DNA from: a virus
Length of the DNA: 64,000 nt
Reading direction: 5' to 3' (one strand)
IMG/VR virus record: IMGVR_UViG_3300037087_000046
Coordinates: 1 to 64,000 of that record
Positions 15,338 to 22,237 of this stretch are shown here, piece by piece. Within the stretch, counting starts at the first letter, position 1, and every line of letters begins with the position of its first letter. The notes below the pieces were generated by a model. The model saw only the letters and a program-made list of their open reading frames with translations, had not been told where the DNA came from and searched no databases. The position numbers and the translations under genes are program-made.

Positions 15338-15817
15338 CTAATCCACTTCATGGAAGTATCCTTTCAACCCACATGCCCGAAGAATCTGGGCATTCTCTTT
15401 ACCAAATGCAACAAGCACCGAAGGTGCTCCTGCATTGTTAGGATAAATTGTACCATCACCCTTGCAAAATTGCAAGCGTTTTTCAAGAAAAAGAATACCG
15501 CTCATATTTGGGAACACTATCTCTTGGAACATCTTGGTGTCGGTACGTGCAAAGATAAGGGCTATACCATTACCGTGTGCAGCCAACTTCTTAACCCACT
15601 TAATAGTTTCTTTACCATAAGGGGGATTAAGCCATACACGCCCGTCCCAATCCATAAGAAGACCGTCATCGTCCTTTGTGAAGTGCCGCGTTGCTGTCTT
15701 CCAAGGCCGATTGATTGGACTGCAAGGGTCTAAATCGAAGCATCCCAACGCTTCGATAATATACTTTGGCGTAAGCCACTCTTCACTTCCATGCTGGTTC
15801 TGGTCAAAATTAGACAT
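15338..15817 (-). CDS. phage DNA N6-adenine methyltransferase (Dam-family)
   Basis: EWLTP, FDLDPC, DDGL, VWLNPPYG, ARTDT. Confidence 0.9.
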   Translation of the reverse strand: MSNFDQNQHGSEEWLTPKYIIEALGCFDLDPCSPINRPWKTATRHFTKDDDGLLMDWDGRVWLNPPYGKETIKWVKKLAAHGNGIALIFARTDTKMFQEIVFPNMSGILFLEKRLQFCKGDGTIYPNNAGAPSVLVAFGKENAQILRACGLKGYFHEVD

Positions 15818-15820
15818 ACT

Positions 15821-17242
15821 TTATCCATTCATCTTAATAGAGTAATTTTTATTTCCATCCGTATAGTACACCTTGCCACTTATGTTTGACAGCGGCATGG
15901 AAGAATCCAGCGGACAATTTGGTATTTCCTTTACCTTGGCGTTATCCATGAATACTTCCATTGTATCTCCATCCATCAACACACACGGACCATTAGGAAC
16001 CTTGGTGAAGTTTACTATCTTGTCATCTGTCTCTACAACGCGGCAGGTATATGTAGTATATTTTTTATCAAACACACAAACGAACCTGTAGTATTTTCCT
16101 GCTTTCTCAGCAATGACTACTAAGATTGTATCCTCACCCTTAACATCAATAACCCTGTGCCCGAATACTTCTGGTATCTCCTTCAACCAGATAGAACCCT
16201 GTTCGTATGGAATCGCAAAATACGGTCTACCTAATAGGTCTTGATAAACTACCCCATCAAAAATCTTTGGGTTAAGCAAAGAGCAGAGTTTTTTACCAGG
16301 TTGTTCAAGAAGGATGTTACTCACAGTGTAATACCTGCCATCTCTAACCATTGTGTTTTTAGGTAGTTTAACCTTCTTCACCATAGGACATTCAACAATA
16401 GTGAAGGCTGAATTAGAGGGAGTAAACAATACTGTCTGGGCTGTAATAGCCCCCATTCCTACAGGCGGTTCTAACCTATCACCATGTCTAAACACTCTTT
16501 TAAACCATTCCAGTTGGTTACTCGGTATGACTGTCAGTGGGCGGCAGGATGGTGGAAGTTTAACCCCCGAGTCAAAAACAGACGCATTATTCTGCATCCG
16601 CTTCAACCATTCTTTTGGTGCATATTTAGGGTGTGCGCCCTTGTAGGGATGTATGCCAATGTAAAGTTGAAAAGCAATAACCGCCAAAGAGAACCAATCA
16701 CTTTTCTCAGTAAACGTGGTCGCGCTAAAGTCTTTAACTGAATCCATCAAAGCAGTTGCCTTAAATGATTTTGTTTGGTAACTATCCACATCAATGAAGT
16801 ATGGGATATTGTTTGAAATAATCAAATTCATTTCATTCAAATCAACAACCAGTACACCTGCTGAATGGATACTTTTAACTGTTTCAATGAGTTCTGTTAC
16901 CATCTTTACAGCGTCTTTATCTGTGAATCCAATAGTGTCTCTATACCCCTTAGTGAAGTATTTACACATGGGCTGGGCATCTTGCACAAACTTAGTAACA
17001 TACCCAATAGGTACACCCTGTTGGTCTTTAACTATTTTGATTGGGGCTATCACATTTTGTTTTTTAATTAGGGAGAGTTCAGTAATCTTTTTGGTAGGTA
17101 GCATCTTTCGTGGATCATGGTAAACTTTTACCGCCATATCGTTGTTTAACTTGTATACAGTCCCCTCCCCGCCCGATGCCACATAGTTAGAGTCAGTTAA
17201 TGAACATTCACCATACCCATCAATTTGAACTTTCATTATCAC
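15821..17242 (-). CDS. Ser/Thr protein kinase-like protein with C-terminal accessory domain
   Basis: GGEGTVY, AVKVY, DLNEMN, FIDVDS, SDWFSLA, GIHPY. Confidence 0.85.
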   Translation of the reverse strand: MIMKVQIDGYGECSLTDSNYVASGGEGTVYKLNNDMAVKVYHDPRKMLPTKKITELSLIKKQNVIAPIKIVKDQQGVPIGYVTKFVQDAQPMCKYFTKGYRDTIGFTDKDAVKMVTELIETVKSIHSAGVLVVDLNEMNLIISNNIPYFIDVDSYQTKSFKATALMDSVKDFSATTFTEKSDWFSLAVIAFQLYIGIHPYKGAHPKYAPKEWLKRMQNNASVFDSGVKLPPSCRPLTVIPSNQLEWFKRVFRHGDRLEPPVGMGAITAQTVLFTPSNSAFTIVECPMVKKVKLPKNTMVRDGRYYTVSNILLEQPGKKLCSLLNPKIFDGVVYQDLLGRPYFAIPYEQGSIWLKEIPEVFGHRVIDVKGEDTILVVIAEKAGKYYRFVCVFDKKYTTYTCRVVETDDKIVNFTKVPNGPCVLMDGDTMEVFMDNAKVKEIPNCPLDSSMPLSNISGKVYYTDGNKNYSIKMNG

Positions 17243-17963
17243 TCCTAACTATCGCTGCCATTGAAAAATCATCTTTATGGTGTATACCATTTGTGGTCAA
17301 ATATCGCTTCAACAGGTTAAGTTTCTTTTGTAAGAACACCCCCTTAATAGAGGGGAAACTAATAACCTCATCCCCCATGTCTACTACTTCATCACCCTTG
17401 AAAAATTGTTGTATTCCATCCGACATAATAACAATCTTCTGTGGGTACTCAGCATACAGTGCAATCGGGGTTCTTATTTCACCGATGCTCTTTGAAAACC
17501 CTTGGCACAGTTGCTTTTCATAAGCAGCATCTCTATTTGGGTCTAACTTGTAACTCAAATAGTAGGGGGCGTTTGATGAATACTGGATGTCATGGTGTAC
17601 CCCGTCAATAGAGATTACCCCATCTCCCCAAGCATAAACAACACCCATGCTGTCTGTAGCCATAGCCACTATCAAAGTAGCATCAAATACTGTGCTTGGT
17701 AAATTAAGGGGTAGCATACTACTCCTTAATTTACCAAGTAGTAATTCCTCGAAGTCCCAAATATTAAAACAGATTCCATTTTCACTGATTACTTGGATGG
17801 CACATAGGGTAAGGAGTCTTGCACCAATGTCAGTGTTCTTGGATGAACTACAACCATCACTAACAATAGCATAATGTACCCCGTTTATAACCCCGTTAGA
17901 TGAATAATCTTCACATACTTTGTGTGTTGACCCAATTGTGAAAAAGGAATCTGTGTTGTACAT
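17220..17963 (-). CDS. PP2C-family protein phosphatase
   Basis: GSTH..CEDY, VSDGCSS, WGDG, MSDG, HKDDFS; start 1 bp after the vWA stop. Confidence 0.85.
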   Translation of the reverse strand: MYNTDSFFTIGSTHKVCEDYSSNGVINGVHYAIVSDGCSSSKNTDIGARLLTLCAIQVISENGICFNIWDFEELLLGKLRSSMLPLNLPSTVFDATLIVAMATDSMGVVYAWGDGVISIDGVHHDIQYSSNAPYYLSYKLDPNRDAAYEKQLCQGFSKSIGEIRTPIALYAEYPQKIVIMSDGIQQFFKGDEVVDMGDEVISFPSIKGVFLQKKLNLLKRYLTTNGIHHKDDFSMAAIVRSDNESSN

Positions 17964-17964
17964 G

Positions 17965-18696
17965 TTAGAATGTAAGGGGCTGGCTTGCCCCACTCCCCAA
18001 GGATTGACTTACACTGCTGATAGAGCGGCTTACAAAGGAAGCGAGTTTAGCAAGTTTGTTTTTGGATGCCTCACCAATATCAACAAACTGGTCAAGCCCG
18101 GCACTGTTTTTGAAGGCTTCAAGACCACGACTCAATATAGCCTCCCCGCCAGTAACCCCGATCAGTACGACAGTTACTGATTCAACTCCCTCACTCTTTT
18201 TAGCATCGTCAAGAAGGGCTTTGATTTTGTAGGGAGCAAAATTGGATGAGTTATCTTCCCCATCCGTGATAACAAAGATAACCGCGTTGCAATTTATACC
18301 ACTCTTTGGAAATGTGGAACCATACGTCAGTGTAGCATCAATAGAGGTATGTGTAGCATCATACAACGCCGTCATTCCACCAATACCCTTGAACACATCA
18401 TCATAATCATTCTGGTCGATACTGTTCAACATCTTAAACCCGTGGAACTCTGTCAGTTTGTTATTAAACAACACCGTTCGGAGAAGCAGATTTTCAGCAC
18501 GGGGGGATTTTTTACAAGCATCAATAATTTCTTTCAAACACGAAATCATCTCAGTCTTAAAAGAATCTACTGACCCTGATTGGTCTTGAATGATAGAAAC
18601 CAAGGTATACTCACTGGCTTCAAGGTCAGTTGCAGGGGTGGTGTTAAAGTGATACCCGTGGGGGGTATTCATAACTTCATCAGTAATGCGGGGCAT
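17965..18696 (-). CDS. vWA (MIDAS) domain protein, TerY-like
   Basis: DQSGS MIDAS, GGMTALYDA, ITDGEDN. Confidence 0.85.
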   Translation of the reverse strand: MPRITDEVMNTPHGYHFNTTPATDLEASEYTLVSIIQDQSGSVDSFKTEMISCLKEIIDACKKSPRAENLLLRTVLFNNKLTEFHGFKMLNSIDQNDYDDVFKGIGGMTALYDATHTSIDATLTYGSTFPKSGINCNAVIFVITDGEDNSSNFAPYKIKALLDDAKKSEGVESVTVVLIGVTGGEAILSRGLEAFKNSAGLDQFVDIGEASKNKLAKLASFVSRSISSVSQSLGSGASQPLTF

Positions 18697-18697
18697 A

Positions 18698-19504
18698 TTA
18701 TTTAACTCCTTTGAAGAAATCAACTGTGGTGCTAATTTGCATTCCACGCGCTGTCATGTCTTTCACAAACTTCTCACCCAATGCTTCAAACCCAGTAACA
18801 TTCGATGTGGCATCTTGCAACAACACAATCTTCTTAATGTTATCTTCCCCGAAGTTATTAGCAAGGTCAGTAACGCTATTACAGACACAGTGGCTCAGAG
18901 CCTCACCAGCCACAAGAACAACGTCGGCCTTTTTCAAGGTATCAATCAGTTCGGTGTTAAGTTGAGTGTTGCAATCTTTTGGGTCAGGTACGTCAGCCAG
19001 AAGAAGTGAGTAGTGTTCCGTGAATGGGTTAGACCCTTTCGTGATGTAATTGACCCACGCAGTCTCTTTTTCTTCCCAACGAAGGAGAGACTCATACAAC
19101 TCTGCATACACCTTGTGCCCGGTGCTACCAATCAAACAATGCGGGGGCCAGATACAAAGAACATAGCGGCTGTTCTGTTCCAACGTTTTAACGTAATCAA
19201 GGAAACGATTGCGGAGTTGGGGAAGGGTAGGATTCCACACGCCGTTCTTCACATCCGTAACGGAAATAACCGTAAACGGGTTAGGGTGTTTACCATTTGC
19301 ATCCACCCACATGTTGGGGTGTGCAATGTGGTTAAACGAGTGGGAATCCAACGACACACGGATGTCATTCAATTTGTCCCCATACTTATCAACCATCTTA
19401 ACAAGCCGACTCATATCTGAGTCAGCACCTTGCACAAACAATGCTCCTGTGGGGTCACAAAAGTCATGCTGTGGGTCTACTACAAACAAGTCAATTTTTT
19501 TCAT
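18698..19504 (-). CDS. nicotinamidase/isochorismatase-family cysteine hydrolase (PncA-like)
   Basis: VVDPQHDF, DSH..H, WPPHC, KG, GEALSHCV. Confidence 0.85.
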   Translation of the reverse strand: MKKIDLFVVDPQHDFCDPTGALFVQGADSDMSRLVKMVDKYGDKLNDIRVSLDSHSFNHIAHPNMWVDANGKHPNPFTVISVTDVKNGVWNPTLPQLRNRFLDYVKTLEQNSRYVLCIWPPHCLIGSTGHKVYAELYESLLRWEEKETAWVNYITKGSNPFTEHYSLLLADVPDPKDCNTQLNTELIDTLKKADVVLVAGEALSHCVCNSVTDLANNFGEDNIKKIVLLQDATSNVTGFEALGEKFVKDMTARGMQISTTVDFFKGVK

Positions 19505-19541
19505 CTTTCTTTTCTCCTTGGTTTATTTAACTACAAGAAAC

Positions 19542-19570
19542 ACTCTACACCTCTACTCCTGACGTGTCAA
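19542..19570 (-). promoter_or_regulatory. sigma70-type promoter for the nicotinamidase-vWA-PP2C-kinase operon
   Basis: TTGACA-N17-TAGAGT on the minus strand, ending 38 nt upstream of the ATG, followed by an AAGGAG RBS. Confidence 0.7.
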
Positions 19571-22237
19571 CATTTTCCCCTTGAGTATCCAAGGTTGCTC
19601 TCCTTCCGGGTGTGGTGAATCTTTCCAAACTAAGTTTGCCATATAGCGTTGTCCATTATCTTTTGGGTAACGCCCACTAATGATGTTGTATAGTGGGAAC
19701 TCTTTTGACAACCTGTTCTTTGTCCATGTCTCTGCATCTTCTGACAAGTCATTGAACTTTCGGTAGAACTCAGAGAACTTAATAACACCACCATCTACAA
19801 AATCGCAGAAGTCCTCAAGGAATCTTGACAGCGATGTTTCATTGGTATTCTGCAAATTACTCTTCTCCATTGATTCAATCACAGGCACCTTCAGGCGGTC
19901 ATTAGATTCAGGGATTTCCAGATTCAATACTGCTGCCAGAAAGTCAGGTGCTTCTTTTTCAAGCAAGTTACTGAATATGTGTTCTGGTACTCTGTTCTCC
20001 TCTGGAATGTCTGGAACATGAAATACGGTTATGCGAGTATCACCGGGGAACGTGGGGCAGTAAGATGCAAAGTTTGCACATTGAATCCAGTGCGTTGTAT
20101 TGTCTGAGTGGTAAGGTGTATCTCCTTTCCGGTGAATCAACAGATCAGGGCTTGTTACCCAATCCTTGATACGGTGCAACGCTTCAGGTTCTTTAGACAA
20201 ATCAATCTCTTCCACAACACAAAGAACCTTACCTTCAATTTCATAGTTGAAGGCATCCTTACTCTTCAGGGCTTGTTTGGCAAACATGTATCCTTCAGTG
20301 AAAAGTTTTTTAAGTGCCACATGAAACGAAGATTTACCTGTGTTCTCATTCCCATAAAAGAACAGGTAGGGAAGATGCTCATAAGGATTTTGGAACAGAG
20401 ACGCAATCCAAATTTTAAGATAATCCGCCCCGGTACAAACACCGTTCTCTCTTGCCCAATCATTATCAGAAAGACAACTATCTAAACTACTGCCACAATG
20501 GTTTAACATTTGTGTCCATGTGGGGTAAGACAGATTATCCTTATCTTCGCTTGGGGTATATTTGAACTTAGCCCCAAACCTATTCCATACACGGTCGCCT
20601 GGATATTCCACATCGAACGGACGATTGATAATCTTCCAGGGGTTTAGGATACATCCTCCAGTGTACTGAGTTGCTTCTTTGCTGGTATATCCAAGAGACT
20701 GAAGGGCTGCCCGAACATTTGCAACAGGCTCCTCACCCCAAGCACCACCACGAAGAAGAACCCAATCTGCATCATTTCCTTTAGAGTCAACCAAGTGACG
20801 AACCTTCTCATCATCTGTGCTTACCTCTGACTCACGAACGGTCTCGGTAGTGGTATTAAACATCTTGACCCATTTCCCCTTCTTACCTAACCATCCGGGC
20901 ATGGAGTCACCTTCTTCTTGTTTGATGGAAACAATAAGACGACCATCCTTGTGTTCTTTCAAGGTTGTCCCACGGTACTCCATCTCTTTAGGAACGTCGA
21001 TAGCCGCACCGAGGATAGATGCCGCTGTAACCGCTGCTGAAGACGTTTTAAAGACAATCTCCCCCGTTGTGTCCTCTAAGCCACCTTCGGCTCTGGAAGC
21101 CGTCAGAAGGTCTGGAACAGCGTTATAGAAGCACTTTGTCCAGCCACTGTTATCCTGTGTCCAAGTAGTATCTTCTTGACACCCATTTCCGAACCTACGA
21201 ACCACCCATGCCCCCTTTGGAAGCGGGAAGCAGAAACAATTCTGGGAGGTTAAGTCTGAACCAGTTGAGTTGGTTTTAAAGACACCTTTAAAGCCCAAGT
21301 CCTTGTGTGCCTTTTGAAGCATATAAGTGTGGGCGACAAGAGCATAATGGTCTTGGTCCCACCACCATGCACTATTACTGTCCTCAAGATAAGTTAGTAA
21401 CTGACGATGTTCATCCGTTAAGGAAACACGAGGGTACTGTCCACTGAGTTGTTCTAAAAAGTCGGCATCTTTTGCTTCTTGCCTACGATTAGAAACACGA
21501 ATAACCTTTACGTGGTCTCTCCAGTTAGGAGGGGGTTCATCAAGAGGGATACCTTGCTTGATAAGGCTTAGCCCATCCGTACCCTCCATCTTACGCCCCC
21601 ACACCCACATGTTACCACCACAGGTATCTACCTTGGACTCAAGGACAATACCGGACAAGGCAGAAATCTGACCAAGGATGCTGCGTGCGAGTGCGGCATG
21701 TTCTGTGTGGTTAGCGGTAGGTACATTTAGAAACACATAAATGTGAAACCCTGACCCAGAGGTAGACTTACGGAGAGTTACCCAAGGTATATCGGTTACT
21801 GCATGAATGATTCCGTCCAACTCATCTTGAGTCAGACCGACAGCATGATTCATAACTGAGTCAAAATCGAACGCAACCCAACGGGACACAAGGTTCTTCC
21901 AATCCCATCCGGTCATACCAATTGCATCAACGTGCTTAGCCAAATTCCATGTGAGTGGTTTATCTTCGTACTCTGGCTTTGTGTCTGCATGATAGGGAAT
22001 ACGGAATACCTTCCAAGTCTCATCACCATCTGTATAAGCCTTGTAGTTGTTTCCCTTATACTCCCCAATAACAAGTTCTCCATCGTCCTGCGCTACATTT
22101 ACTTGGCATTCCATATCAGCACTGTAAAGTTCAGATAAGTCTTGGTGTGTAGCATTAGTTAAAAAATTCTTGATAGCCTCAGTTTTTAGCAAATCGTATA
22201 CTTCCTTCCTTAGCGGTCCCCCACATGCCCGAACCAT
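19553..22237 (-). CDS. primase-helicase (AEP-type primase plus SF3/D5-like NTPase)
   Basis: FDFD and SGSGFHIY (primase); GNENTGKS Walker A and VVEE Walker B. Confidence 0.8.
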   Translation of the reverse strand: MVRACGGPLRKEVYDLLKTEAIKNFLTNATHQDLSELYSADMECQVNVAQDDGELVIGEYKGNNYKAYTDGDETWKVFRIPYHADTKPEYEDKPLTWNLAKHVDAIGMTGWDWKNLVSRWVAFDFDSVMNHAVGLTQDELDGIIHAVTDIPWVTLRKSTSGSGFHIYVFLNVPTANHTEHAALARSILGQISALSGIVLESKVDTCGGNMWVWGRKMEGTDGLSLIKQGIPLDEPPPNWRDHVKVIRVSNRRQEAKDADFLEQLSGQYPRVSLTDEHRQLLTYLEDSNSAWWWDQDHYALVAHTYMLQKAHKDLGFKGVFKTNSTGSDLTSQNCFCFPLPKGAWVVRRFGNGCQEDTTWTQDNSGWTKCFYNAVPDLLTASRAEGGLEDTTGEIVFKTSSAAVTAASILGAAIDVPKEMEYRGTTLKEHKDGRLIVSIKQEEGDSMPGWLGKKGKWVKMFNTTTETVRESEVSTDDEKVRHLVDSKGNDADWVLLRGGAWGEEPVANVRAALQSLGYTSKEATQYTGGCILNPWKIINRPFDVEYPGDRVWNRFGAKFKYTPSEDKDNLSYPTWTQMLNHCGSSLDSCLSDNDWARENGVCTGADYLKIWIASLFQNPYEHLPYLFFYGNENTGKSSFHVALKKLFTEGYMFAKQALKSKDAFNYEIEGKVLCVVEEIDLSKEPEALHRIKDWVTSPDLLIHRKGDTPYHSDNTTHWIQCANFASYCPTFPGDTRITVFHVPDIPEENRVPEHIFSNLLEKEAPDFLAAVLNLEIPESNDRLKVPVIESMEKSNLQNTNETSLSRFLEDFCDFVDGGVIKFSEFYRKFNDLSEDAETWTKNRLSKEFPLYNIISGRYPKDNGQRYMANLVWKDSPHPEGEQPWILKGKMLTRQE

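Follow-up and report, generated by a model that had tools for sequence, protein, structure and literature searches.

TerY-P-type triads, composed of a vWA protein, a PP2C-type phosphatase and a Ser/Thr kinase, are to our knowledge widespread in bacteria and present in Escherichia coli K-12, and we know of no substrate or output for them. The locus described here raises the question of what such a triad may control when it is carried by a phage and is joined by a gene for a nicotinamidase-like hydrolase, given that the depletion and reconstitution of nicotinamide adenine dinucleotide (NAD+) are central to the contest of phages with bacterial immunity. It lies in the first 64 kb (64,000 nucleotides (nt); this whole stretch is referred to as the window) of IMG/VR virus record IMGVR_UViG_3300037087_000046, which is 82.8 kb long and about 80% complete as estimated by CheckV. 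The source is a phage, since this is an IMG/VR virus record that encodes a primase, a helicase, a DNA polymerase, an exonuclease and an anaerobic ribonucleotide reductase (NrdD), in agreement with the assignment made in an earlier note on this DNA, which was written from the sequence alone. At the DNA level, no match to the 4.2-kb region was found among 50,697 deposited phage genomes.

The reading that we favour, and to which we give about even confidence, is that the four genes constitute a horizontally mobile regulated nicotinamidase in which reversible phosphorylation, probably on a serine-rich tail of the vWA protein, gates the deamidation of nicotinamide. The identities of the products, their intact active sites, their folds, their co-inheritance and the linkage of related loci to NAD genes, on which this reading is built, were all obtained by computation.

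Layout of the cassette

The four genes of the cassette are arranged as follows.

19504-18698, minus strand: hydrolase, a predicted long-form PncA-type nicotinamidase of 268 amino acids (aa)
18696-17965, minus strand: TerY-like vWA protein, 243 aa from the ATG
17963-17220, minus strand: PP2C-type Ser/Thr phosphatase, 247 aa
17242 (GTG) or 17236 (ATG) to 15821, minus strand: Hanks-type Ser/Thr kinase, 473 or 471 aa

A single nucleotide separates the hydrolase gene from the vWA gene and the latter from the PP2C gene, while the PP2C and kinase genes overlap by 17 nt if the kinase is read from the ATG and by 23 nt if it is read from the GTG, and a gene for a Dam-type methyltransferase follows 3 nt after the kinase. 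These coordinates bear out the spacing of the earlier note (gaps of 1 bp or overlaps, with a methylase 3 bp further on). The ATG starts of the vWA and PP2C genes are backed by the respective family alignments, and the kinase probably starts at the ATG at 17236, which is backed by its family alignment and by the Atlas record.

Identity of the four products

The hydrolase is predicted, from its residues and its modelled fold, to be a divergent, long-form nicotinamidase of the PncA type with activity on nicotinamide. In an alignment of 47 hydrolase sequences the residues D10, K156 and C206, which align to motifs of yeast Pnc1 and Mycobacterium tuberculosis PncA, and the residues D53, H55 and H122 are all invariant; we take the former to be the catalytic triad and the latter the metal ligands, in keeping with the roles of these residues in nicotinamidases. 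An Asp-His-His metal triad is typical of nicotinamidases. Among solved structures, the best sequence matches are yeast Pnc1, Leishmania PnC1, M. tuberculosis PncA and the enzyme of Pyrococcus horikoshii, with alignments that span the motifs VVDxQxDF, DxH, WPPHC and xHCV, and the DSH and WPPHC motifs of the hydrolase are aligned to the DWH and WPVHC/WPPHC of the solved nicotinamidases. The AlphaFold2 (AF2) model of the protein has a pLDDT of 96.8, and a Foldseek search of the PDB with this model returned nicotinamidases or pyrazinamidases at all of ranks 1-17 (E 2.9e-16 to 3.2e-10; TM by target 0.72-0.82, TM by query 0.54-0.66; identity 13-21%), followed at ranks 18-50 by other amidases of the isochorismatase family. 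The known PncA/Pnc1 enzymes (PDB 2wta, 2h0r/3v8e, 1ilw, 3pl1 and 3r2j) thus have in common with the cassette hydrolase the fold, the Asp-Lys-Cys triad and the Asp-His-His metal site, whereas the latter is longer, with 268 aa, carries an insertion at about residues 63-116, is only 13-21% identical to them, scores below the family cut-offs and is paired with a vWA gene. The insertion, of about 50 aa, has invariant positions of its own and is missing from the solved enzymes (179-216 aa).

These differences bear on an explanation that we consider very unlikely, namely that the hydrolase is an amidohydrolase for another amide, such as a modified nucleoside or nucleotide, nicotinamide mononucleotide or nicotinamide riboside, perhaps by virtue of the insertion. 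It is consistent with the scores under the cut-offs of PF00857 and NF008623, with the absence of segment 63-116 from the solved nicotinamidases and the correspondingly low TM by query, and with the many specificities spanned by the isochorismatase superfamily, to which ranks 18-50 belong. The retention of all six catalytic and metal residues, including a WPPHC motif aligned to that of solved nicotinamidases, and the identity of the top 17 structural matches argue against it, as does the repeated presence near the cassette, described below, of PncB, which uses the nicotinate that a nicotinamidase would produce.

The vWA protein matches PF00092 (VWA, 5.3e-6) and phrog_7371 (1.5e-14), and its MIDAS residues D38, S42, T109 and D145 show no variation across 41 sequences. 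The same alignment reveals a C-terminal serine-rich tail, ...FVSxSIS(S/A)xSQxLGxGxxSQxLTF, which ends in LTF and in which the serines S223, S225, S227, S230 and S238 vary little or not at all. This tail is nearly identical across 53 viral and 49 cellular copies of the protein and, judged from these alignments, appears to be conserved more strongly than any other non-catalytic feature of the cassette. When the vWA family was compared with YegL of E. coli by hhalign (probability 63%, E 6.8e-5), the match included the tail, indicating that YegL has a similar serine-rich segment after its vWA domain that is aligned to it at the profile level. Because of this conservation and of the aligned segment in YegL, the tail is proposed here as a candidate phospho-acceptor. 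An extra vWA gene of the cassette family was observed near the cassette in three viral loci (L028, L031 and L041).

The phosphatase matches Pfam PF13672 (PP2C_2) with an E-value of 2.8e-11. In 39 sequences the nine positions D19, D36, G37, D114, G115, D182, G183, D231 and D232 are invariant, and these presumably correspond to the metal-binding aspartate motifs of this class. Its family is aligned to PphC of E. coli by hhalign with a probability of 72% (E 3.4e-5).

The kinase matches Pfam Pkinase (1.9e-9) and no further Pfam domain. In 31 kinases, the glycines G24 and G25 of the Gly-rich loop, K39 in beta-3, E55 in alpha-C, D134, N139 and D151 (the DFG equivalent) are invariant. In its AF2 model (pLDDT 89.4) a Hanks-type domain (residues 1-264) is joined by a disordered linker (265-276) to an all-beta domain (280-471). 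In VIA comparisons, residues 1-267 superimpose on Csk (Z 18.9, root-mean-square deviation (rmsd) 3.5 Å, 236 residues aligned) and on PknB (Z 18.7, rmsd 3.6 Å, 235 aligned); as the VIA search with the whole model returned matches to the kinase domain, the fold of the beta domain is judged from its secondary structure and from its Atlas neighbours. The structural neighbours of residues 277-473 in the Atlas are, first, three mostly viral kinase clusters (365-573 aa) and, next, propellers of the PQQ, BamB and Kelch kinds (TM 0.55-0.62 by query), and the model therefore points to a propeller-like domain, which is presumed to be a sensor. Inspection of residues 265-473 found no CxxC or CxxH pair.

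All 30 aligned relatives have a beta domain longer by about 90 aa (538-586 aa for the whole protein, compared with 473 here), with the gap near residues 285-300, and the kinase of the window is the shortest full-length member of the family seen. Since neither a frameshift nor a stop is present at the gap, the shortening appears to be a natural in-frame loss within the presumed sensor.

Taken together, the product identities given in the earlier note are confirmed for all four genes, with VWA, PP2C_2 and Pkinase above their Pfam cut-offs and with the PncA-like hydrolase recognized as nicotinamidase-like by its residues in the 47-sequence alignment and by its fold in Foldseek ranks 1-17; the catalytic motifs that had looked intact are indeed present, and invariant in each of the four family alignments.

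Conservation and mobility

Related viral loci were collected by searching IMG/VR with the hydrolase alone, which gave 61 loci with 42-61% identity; their contigs range in length from 16 to 548 kb, and 16 exceed 200 kb. The core genes were counted by tblastn within 6 kb of the hydrolase, as clustering of open reading frames (ORFs) overlooks some of them. In the 61 loci a vWA gene was found in 58, a PP2C gene in 54 and a kinase gene in 49, and all four genes in 48, on a single strand throughout; several of the missing genes are attributable to the ends of the stretches. Not all of these loci are independent, as there are near-identical groups among them (L003/L004/L006, L016/L017, L028/L041, L029/L051/L053 and L044/L045/L046/L061/L063), and the 55 clustered viral hydrolases, a set that excludes ORFs cut at a locus end, comprise 48 distinct sequences. 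The order hydrolase-vWA-PP2C-kinase is kept in 45 of the 48 complete viral loci, while the other three (L008, L009 and L048) have the order PP2C-kinase-hydrolase-vWA, a permutation that leaves the hydrolase-vWA and PP2C-kinase pairs whole. This tight pairing suggests that the hydrolase and the vWA protein act as an enzyme-adaptor pair and the PP2C and the kinase as a writer-eraser pair.

The cassette is also found in cells. Among prokaryotes, represented by one genome per species, at least 587 stretches (of at least 600) were confirmed to encode the long-form hydrolase, and the best 80 loci were analysed; the vWA gene is present in 62 of these, the PP2C gene in 46, the kinase gene in 49 and all four in 41, in the order seen in viruses. 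They include multi-megabase Armatimonadota chromosomes, loci of Acidobacteriota and Desulfobacterales, and two contigs of archaeal metagenome-assembled genomes (MAGs). The latter, from a Promethearchaeota MAG (L109) and a Thermoplasmatales MAG (L137), are labelled archaeal and hold all four genes in the usual order. The earlier note had viewed the cassette as a switch carried by a phage; it is not phage-specific, in view of the cellular stretches and of the 41 complete cassettes among the best 80. That note would have been refuted had related loci not kept the hydrolase beside the triad, but the neighbourhood search demonstrates conservation in 48 of 61 loci in viruses and in 41 of the best 80 in cells. 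By the same counts a chance adjacency of the four genes was rejected.

The surroundings of the cassette are different from one genome to the next. For none of the 11 proteins that flank it in the window was a homologue found beside the cassette in the 141 related loci, and in a FastTree phylogeny of 119 hydrolases the viral or cellular label requires 10 changes, with at least three of these changes forced by well-supported branches. Because the flanks are unshared and the label changes along the tree, the four genes can be described as one inherited unit that moves between phages and cells as a whole. The hydrolase of the window sits on a long branch of this tree with no supported placement. 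When relatives were sought with the kinase alone, four pattern matches were obtained and none was confirmed, and the kinase relatives used here were collected via the hydrolase-anchored loci. One further cluster of cellular ORFs (cluster 6, present in 15 loci on the opposite strand and overlapping the hydrolase and vWA genes) was taken as a spurious antisense frame and set aside.

NAD metabolism and RNA repair around the cassette

To describe the neighbours in the viral loci, ORFs were clustered and the cluster representatives were scanned against Pfam. The commonest extra neighbour is PncB (nicotinate phosphoribosyltransferase), in 19 of the 61 loci, followed by RNA ligases (9), two Nudix clusters (7 and 5), NAD synthase (6, and a further 4 of the glutamine-dependent kind), an NMNAT-like nucleotidyltransferase (5), NAD-dependent DNA ligase (5) and RtcB (5), and by PNKP, Thg1 and RlaP. 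Genes for NAD salvage or Nudix proteins lie within 6 kb in 27 of the 61 viral loci, and in 8 of the 61 NAD enzymes, PncB, NadE and NMNAT among them, are interleaved with the cassette genes themselves. In cells, the commonest neighbours within the best 80 loci are an NrtR-type Nudix/winged-helix regulator (24 loci), PncB (21), the NAD-consuming RNA 2'-phosphotransferase Tpt1/KptA (10), ADP-ribosylglycohydrolase (7) and NADAR (4). The theme shared by these neighbours is the consumption of NAD+ and the recycling of nicotinamide and ADP-ribose, which supports the assignment of the enzyme and argues for control of NAD+ salvage as the primary role of the cassette. In particular, the company of NrtR and PncB in cells indicates control of NAD salvage rather than a function primarily in defence or exclusion.

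It is also conceivable, although in our view rather unlikely, that the genes are merely co-transcribed and have separate functions, the hydrolase being a plain salvage nicotinamidase and the trio acting on host proteins or on other NAD enzymes. Such an arrangement would fit the cellular loci that hold the hydrolase without the triad, and the PncB, NadE and NMNAT genes that lie between cassette genes in the eight viral loci would be equally possible targets; moreover, the substrates of the E. coli kinase YegI are not known according to the available part of bioRxiv 10.1101/819920. Against this, the adjacency of hydrolase and vWA survives the permutation of gene order, the four genes are the only ones common to otherwise unrelated backgrounds, and the cassette of the window occurs without any other NAD gene.

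Several loci combine the cassette with genes for nucleic acid repair. RNA-repair genes are found near it in 14 of the 61 viral loci, among which five (L044, L045, L046, L061 and L063), together with L018, L005, L013 and L043, place it beside a complete set for RNA repair, with an Rnl1-type ligase, a second RNA ligase, PNKP and RlaP, or in others with RtcB or Thg1. A connection between RNA repair and nicotinamide recycling is possible, Tpt1/KptA being the adjoining gene in the 10 cellular loci mentioned above. In five other viral loci (L025, L026, L036, L056 and L060) a LigA gene lies directly 5' of the hydrolase, preceded by a Nudix gene in all but L025.

Relation to known systems

According to the available part of PMC11090510, TerY-P consists of a TerY-like vWA protein, a PP2C and a Ser/Thr kinase with a C-terminal zinc ribbon (citing Anantharaman, Iyer and Aravind 2012), and a TerY-P-like form with an OB fold has been validated as a stand-alone anti-phage system (citing Gao et al. 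2020). The triad of the cassette resembles TerY-P in its three proteins and their order, in being a presumed phospho-switch and in being mobile. However, in TerY-P the kinase carries a zinc ribbon or an OB fold, whereas the cassette kinase has a propeller-like beta domain instead, and TerY-P resides in Ter or restriction loci, whereas in cells the cassette is associated with NAD salvage under NrtR and has the nicotinamidase as a fixed fourth gene. Since its kinase lacks both a zinc ribbon and an OB fold and since a fourth gene is fixed, the triad is TerY-P-like and stands outside TerY-P in the strict sense, so that of the earlier comparison with TerY-P the joint presence of vWA, PP2C and kinase stands and strict membership does not.

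From its sequence the triad also appears to be distantly homologous to the yegL-pphC-yegI locus of E. coli, with identical gene order. The kinase is 23% identical to YegI over 279 aa in BLASTP (E 7e-13), a match that covers the kinase domain and about 50 residues following it, while BLASTP of the vWA protein against YegL and of the PP2C against PphC was not significant, the matches in these two cases being weak ones at the profile level. It has been reported in the available part of bioRxiv 10.1101/819920 that YegI is an experimentally active kinase that autophosphorylates on serine, and that it is a 648-aa two-pass membrane protein without a propeller, unlike the cassette kinase with its propeller-like domain. 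Pfam recognizes neither Pkinase nor a zinc-ribbon family in YegI. Thus the yegL-pphC-(yegJ)-yegI locus has in common with the cassette the gene order, the homology of the kinase and the serine-rich segment after the vWA domain, but it has no nicotinamidase and its sequence identity to the cassette is very low.

The likeness to both loci lends itself to another explanation, that of a conflict system of the TerY-P kind in which the triad is a switch for anti-phage defence or superinfection exclusion and the nicotinamidase is a sensor or accessory that reads, for example, the burst of nicotinamide released by NADases. The architecture and gene order, the stand-alone anti-phage activity of TerY-P-like modules (PMC11090510, citing Gao et al. 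2020) and the manner in which the cassette crosses unrelated genomes, as defence genes do, are in its favour, as are the weak PADLOC matches of the kinase to PD-T4-6 and MkoA. It is nevertheless unlikely, because the kinase is devoid of zinc ribbon and OB fold, the cellular neighbours are genes of NAD metabolism under NrtR and not defence genes, and no toxic effector is present; PADLOC, moreover, is blank for the vWA protein and the PP2C (as it is for the hydrolase), although the E. coli YegL/PphC/YegI control gives the same pattern and is equally blank, so that PADLOC does not discriminate here.

Phage-encoded reconstitution of NAD+ has been described for NARP1 (Adps and Namat) and NARP2 (Nampt and Nmnat) in bioRxiv 10.1101/2024.02.11.579819 and for NARP3 (PnuC and NadR) in PMC13464706, as far as the available parts of these papers go. 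Like the cassette, NARP1-3 are phage genes that act on the breakdown products of NAD+; unlike it, they comprise, according to the accessible text of PMC13464706, neither a nicotinamidase nor a kinase/phosphatase/vWA module, and that text contains no PncA, nicotinamidase or vWA and uses 'kinase' only for ribosyl-nicotinamide kinase. Insofar as these sources describe them, NARP1-3 are constitutive enzyme pairs, none of which starts with a nicotinamidase, and a gated nicotinamidase would differ from them in this respect. Relatives of the cassette that carry PncB, NadE and NMNAT have a deamidating route from nicotinamide to NAD+, whereas the phage of the window has its first enzyme and the switch only. 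In the 82.8-kb record, about 80% complete, no match to PF04095 (Nampt/NAPRTase) or PF01467 (NMNAT) was found, Adps and PnuC being outside this search.

In the work on 'NAD-jumbo phages' (PMC11662467), pncA is mentioned twice in the available text, from which kinase, phosphatase and vWA are absent, supplementary gene tables being outside this scope. NrtR regulons with NrtR beside pncA-pncB operons have been described (Rodionov et al. 2008, PMC2330246), and in the part of that text available, supplementary tables again being outside the scope, these operons are presented without kinase, phosphatase or vWA genes. As in those regulons, NrtR adjoins the cassette in cells (the 24 loci given above), whereas the record of the window has neither NrtR nor a Nudix gene. 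Consistent with the earlier statement that no functional description of the four-gene form was at hand, a full-text literature search, which did not extend to supplementary tables, found no published description of it, and the literature on nicotinamidase together with PP2C, judged from titles and the openings of abstracts, contains none concerning a bacterial or phage operon. The cassette is real, widespread, apparently undescribed and experimentally tractable, its function being what we infer from the evidence above.

A putative phosphorylation-gated nicotinamidase

Every reaction that cleaves NAD or transfers ADP-ribose from it yields nicotinamide, and the PncB (Preiss-Handler) route, by which NAD+ is regained, starts from nicotinic acid. 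In the mechanism that we propose, the kinase would add phosphate to the serine-rich tail of the vWA protein, or to the hydrolase itself, and the PP2C would strip it off again; the state of phosphorylation would change the ligand choice of the MIDAS metal site, and binding through this site would either switch the nicotinamidase on or off, or assemble or release it. The propeller-like domain of the kinase would serve as the input sensor. In the phage of the window, the cassette would set the level of nicotinamide in the infected cell and feed the PncB-NadD-NadE route of the host, a gain for the phage being that its replication would be helped while host defences, or the infection itself, consume NAD+. 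As the removal of nicotinamide should relieve the product inhibition of NADases, a principle known from sirtuin biochemistry, this relief may be the reason why such a nicotinamidase needs a switch. Those elements of the scheme that we infer are the substrate and the phospho-acceptor, the way in which control runs, the signal that is sensed and the advantage for the phage.

Several points weigh against this reading. The hydrolase scores 20.3 bits (E 6.4e-4) with Pfam PF00857 (Isochorismatase), under the cut-off of 27, and 37.6 bits (E 1.9e-9) with the PncA equivalog NF008623, its sole NCBIfam match, for which the cut-off is 174; this latter model is a narrow one that passes its own cut-off in one of 14 control genomes and has no match above it in five Armatimonadota genomes, in one of which (G001) the weak match is the cassette hydrolase. 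The insertion of about 50 aa could change the substrate specificity. The case is computational for all members of the family, so that nicotinamide is a substrate predicted from sequence and model, and the assignment of the phospho-acceptor is a guess guided by the alignments. The hydrolase is not strictly dependent on the switch, because about one sixth of the best 80 cellular loci (e.g. L110, L111, L130, L133 and L134) have it without any triad gene despite ample flank. The link to NAD for the phage of the window is drawn from its relatives, since the 82.8-kb record, from which about 20% of the genome is missing, yields no family match for PncB/Nampt, NadE, NMNAT, Nudix, Tpt1, LigA, Macro or NADAR; the cassette stands without another NAD gene in this record and likewise in about half of the viral loci. 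Given the shortened sensor domain of the window kinase, sensing may differ or be impaired. Finally, under a NAD-depleting defence the removal of nicotinamide could harm the phage.

A more specific proposal, which we put forward tentatively and regard as doubtful although possible, is that the cassette is one undescribed machine in which a vWA-gated nicotinamidase is the output of a TerY-P-type switch set at the serine-rich tail by the propeller kinase and the PP2C, and which would serve the phage as a counter to NAD+-depleting immunity, that is, as a fourth and regulated rescue beside NARP1-3. Nicotinamide would then be cleared into the Preiss-Handler route of the host only upon detected breakdown of NAD+.

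As this variant of the triad is tied to one defined enzyme, it provides a testable hypothesis for the target of the switch. If true, a phosphorylation-gated nicotinamidase, present in dozens of phages and hundreds of bacterial species, would add a new level to the regulation of NAD+ recycling. The window is a minimal case in this regard, with four small genes in a phage of about 100 kb and no other NAD gene in the record, and what it contributes is a naturally shortened sensor domain and, in the conserved serine-rich tail of its vWA protein, a candidate phospho-acceptor.

Transcription signals and flanking genes

Around and within the cassette the following further features were recorded.

19570-19542, minus strand: sigma-70-like promoter match TTGACA-N17-TAGAGT; 10 of 12 positions fit a consensus that may not be that of the host
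19514-19519, minus strand: AAGGAG ribosome-binding site, 9 nt 5' of the hydrolase ATG
17695-17738, minus strand: hairpin inside the PP2C coding region, with arms 17695-17714 and 17719-17738, a 20-bp stem and a 4-nt loop
15817-15338, minus strand: Dam-type N6-adenine methyltransferase, 159 aa (Pfam Dam 2.1e-11, above the cut-off)
19553-22237, minus strand: primase-like protein with DUF5906, 894 aa (Pfam 9.6e-14; phrog_1156 DNA primase 1.9e-17)

The cassette is embedded in a leftward block of replication genes, directly 3' of the primase gene. The methyltransferase that follows it matches phrog_111 (E 3.7e-41) and the orphan methyltransferase model of PADLOC (9.4e-16), and no Dam homologue accompanies the cassette in any of the related loci, 61 viral and 80 cellular. 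The earlier listing of this gene 3 bp downstream thus describes a local neighbour and not a component of the cassette. Membership of either Dam or the primase was rejected, as none of the 11 neighbours in the window recurs in the related loci.

The promoter match is the best of six promoter-like sites between 14900 and 20000, a region in which shuffled sequences give 11.5 +/- 3.2, so that as a class such sites are not enriched around the cassette. Its -35 hexamer falls within the final codons of the upstream, co-directional primase gene, and no terminator-like site was found between the primase and hydrolase genes. For these three reasons the motif described earlier stands as a consensus match, and a promoter dedicated to the cassette is a possibility read from the sequence.

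The arms of the PP2C hairpin are 95% complementary, and as sense RNA it folds at -27 kcal/mol (z -6.4), with none of 200 shuffles folding equally well. It may act as an element of mRNA processing or stability between the two gene pairs. The same PP2C gene contains a second inverted pair, 17766-17785 and 17938-17957.

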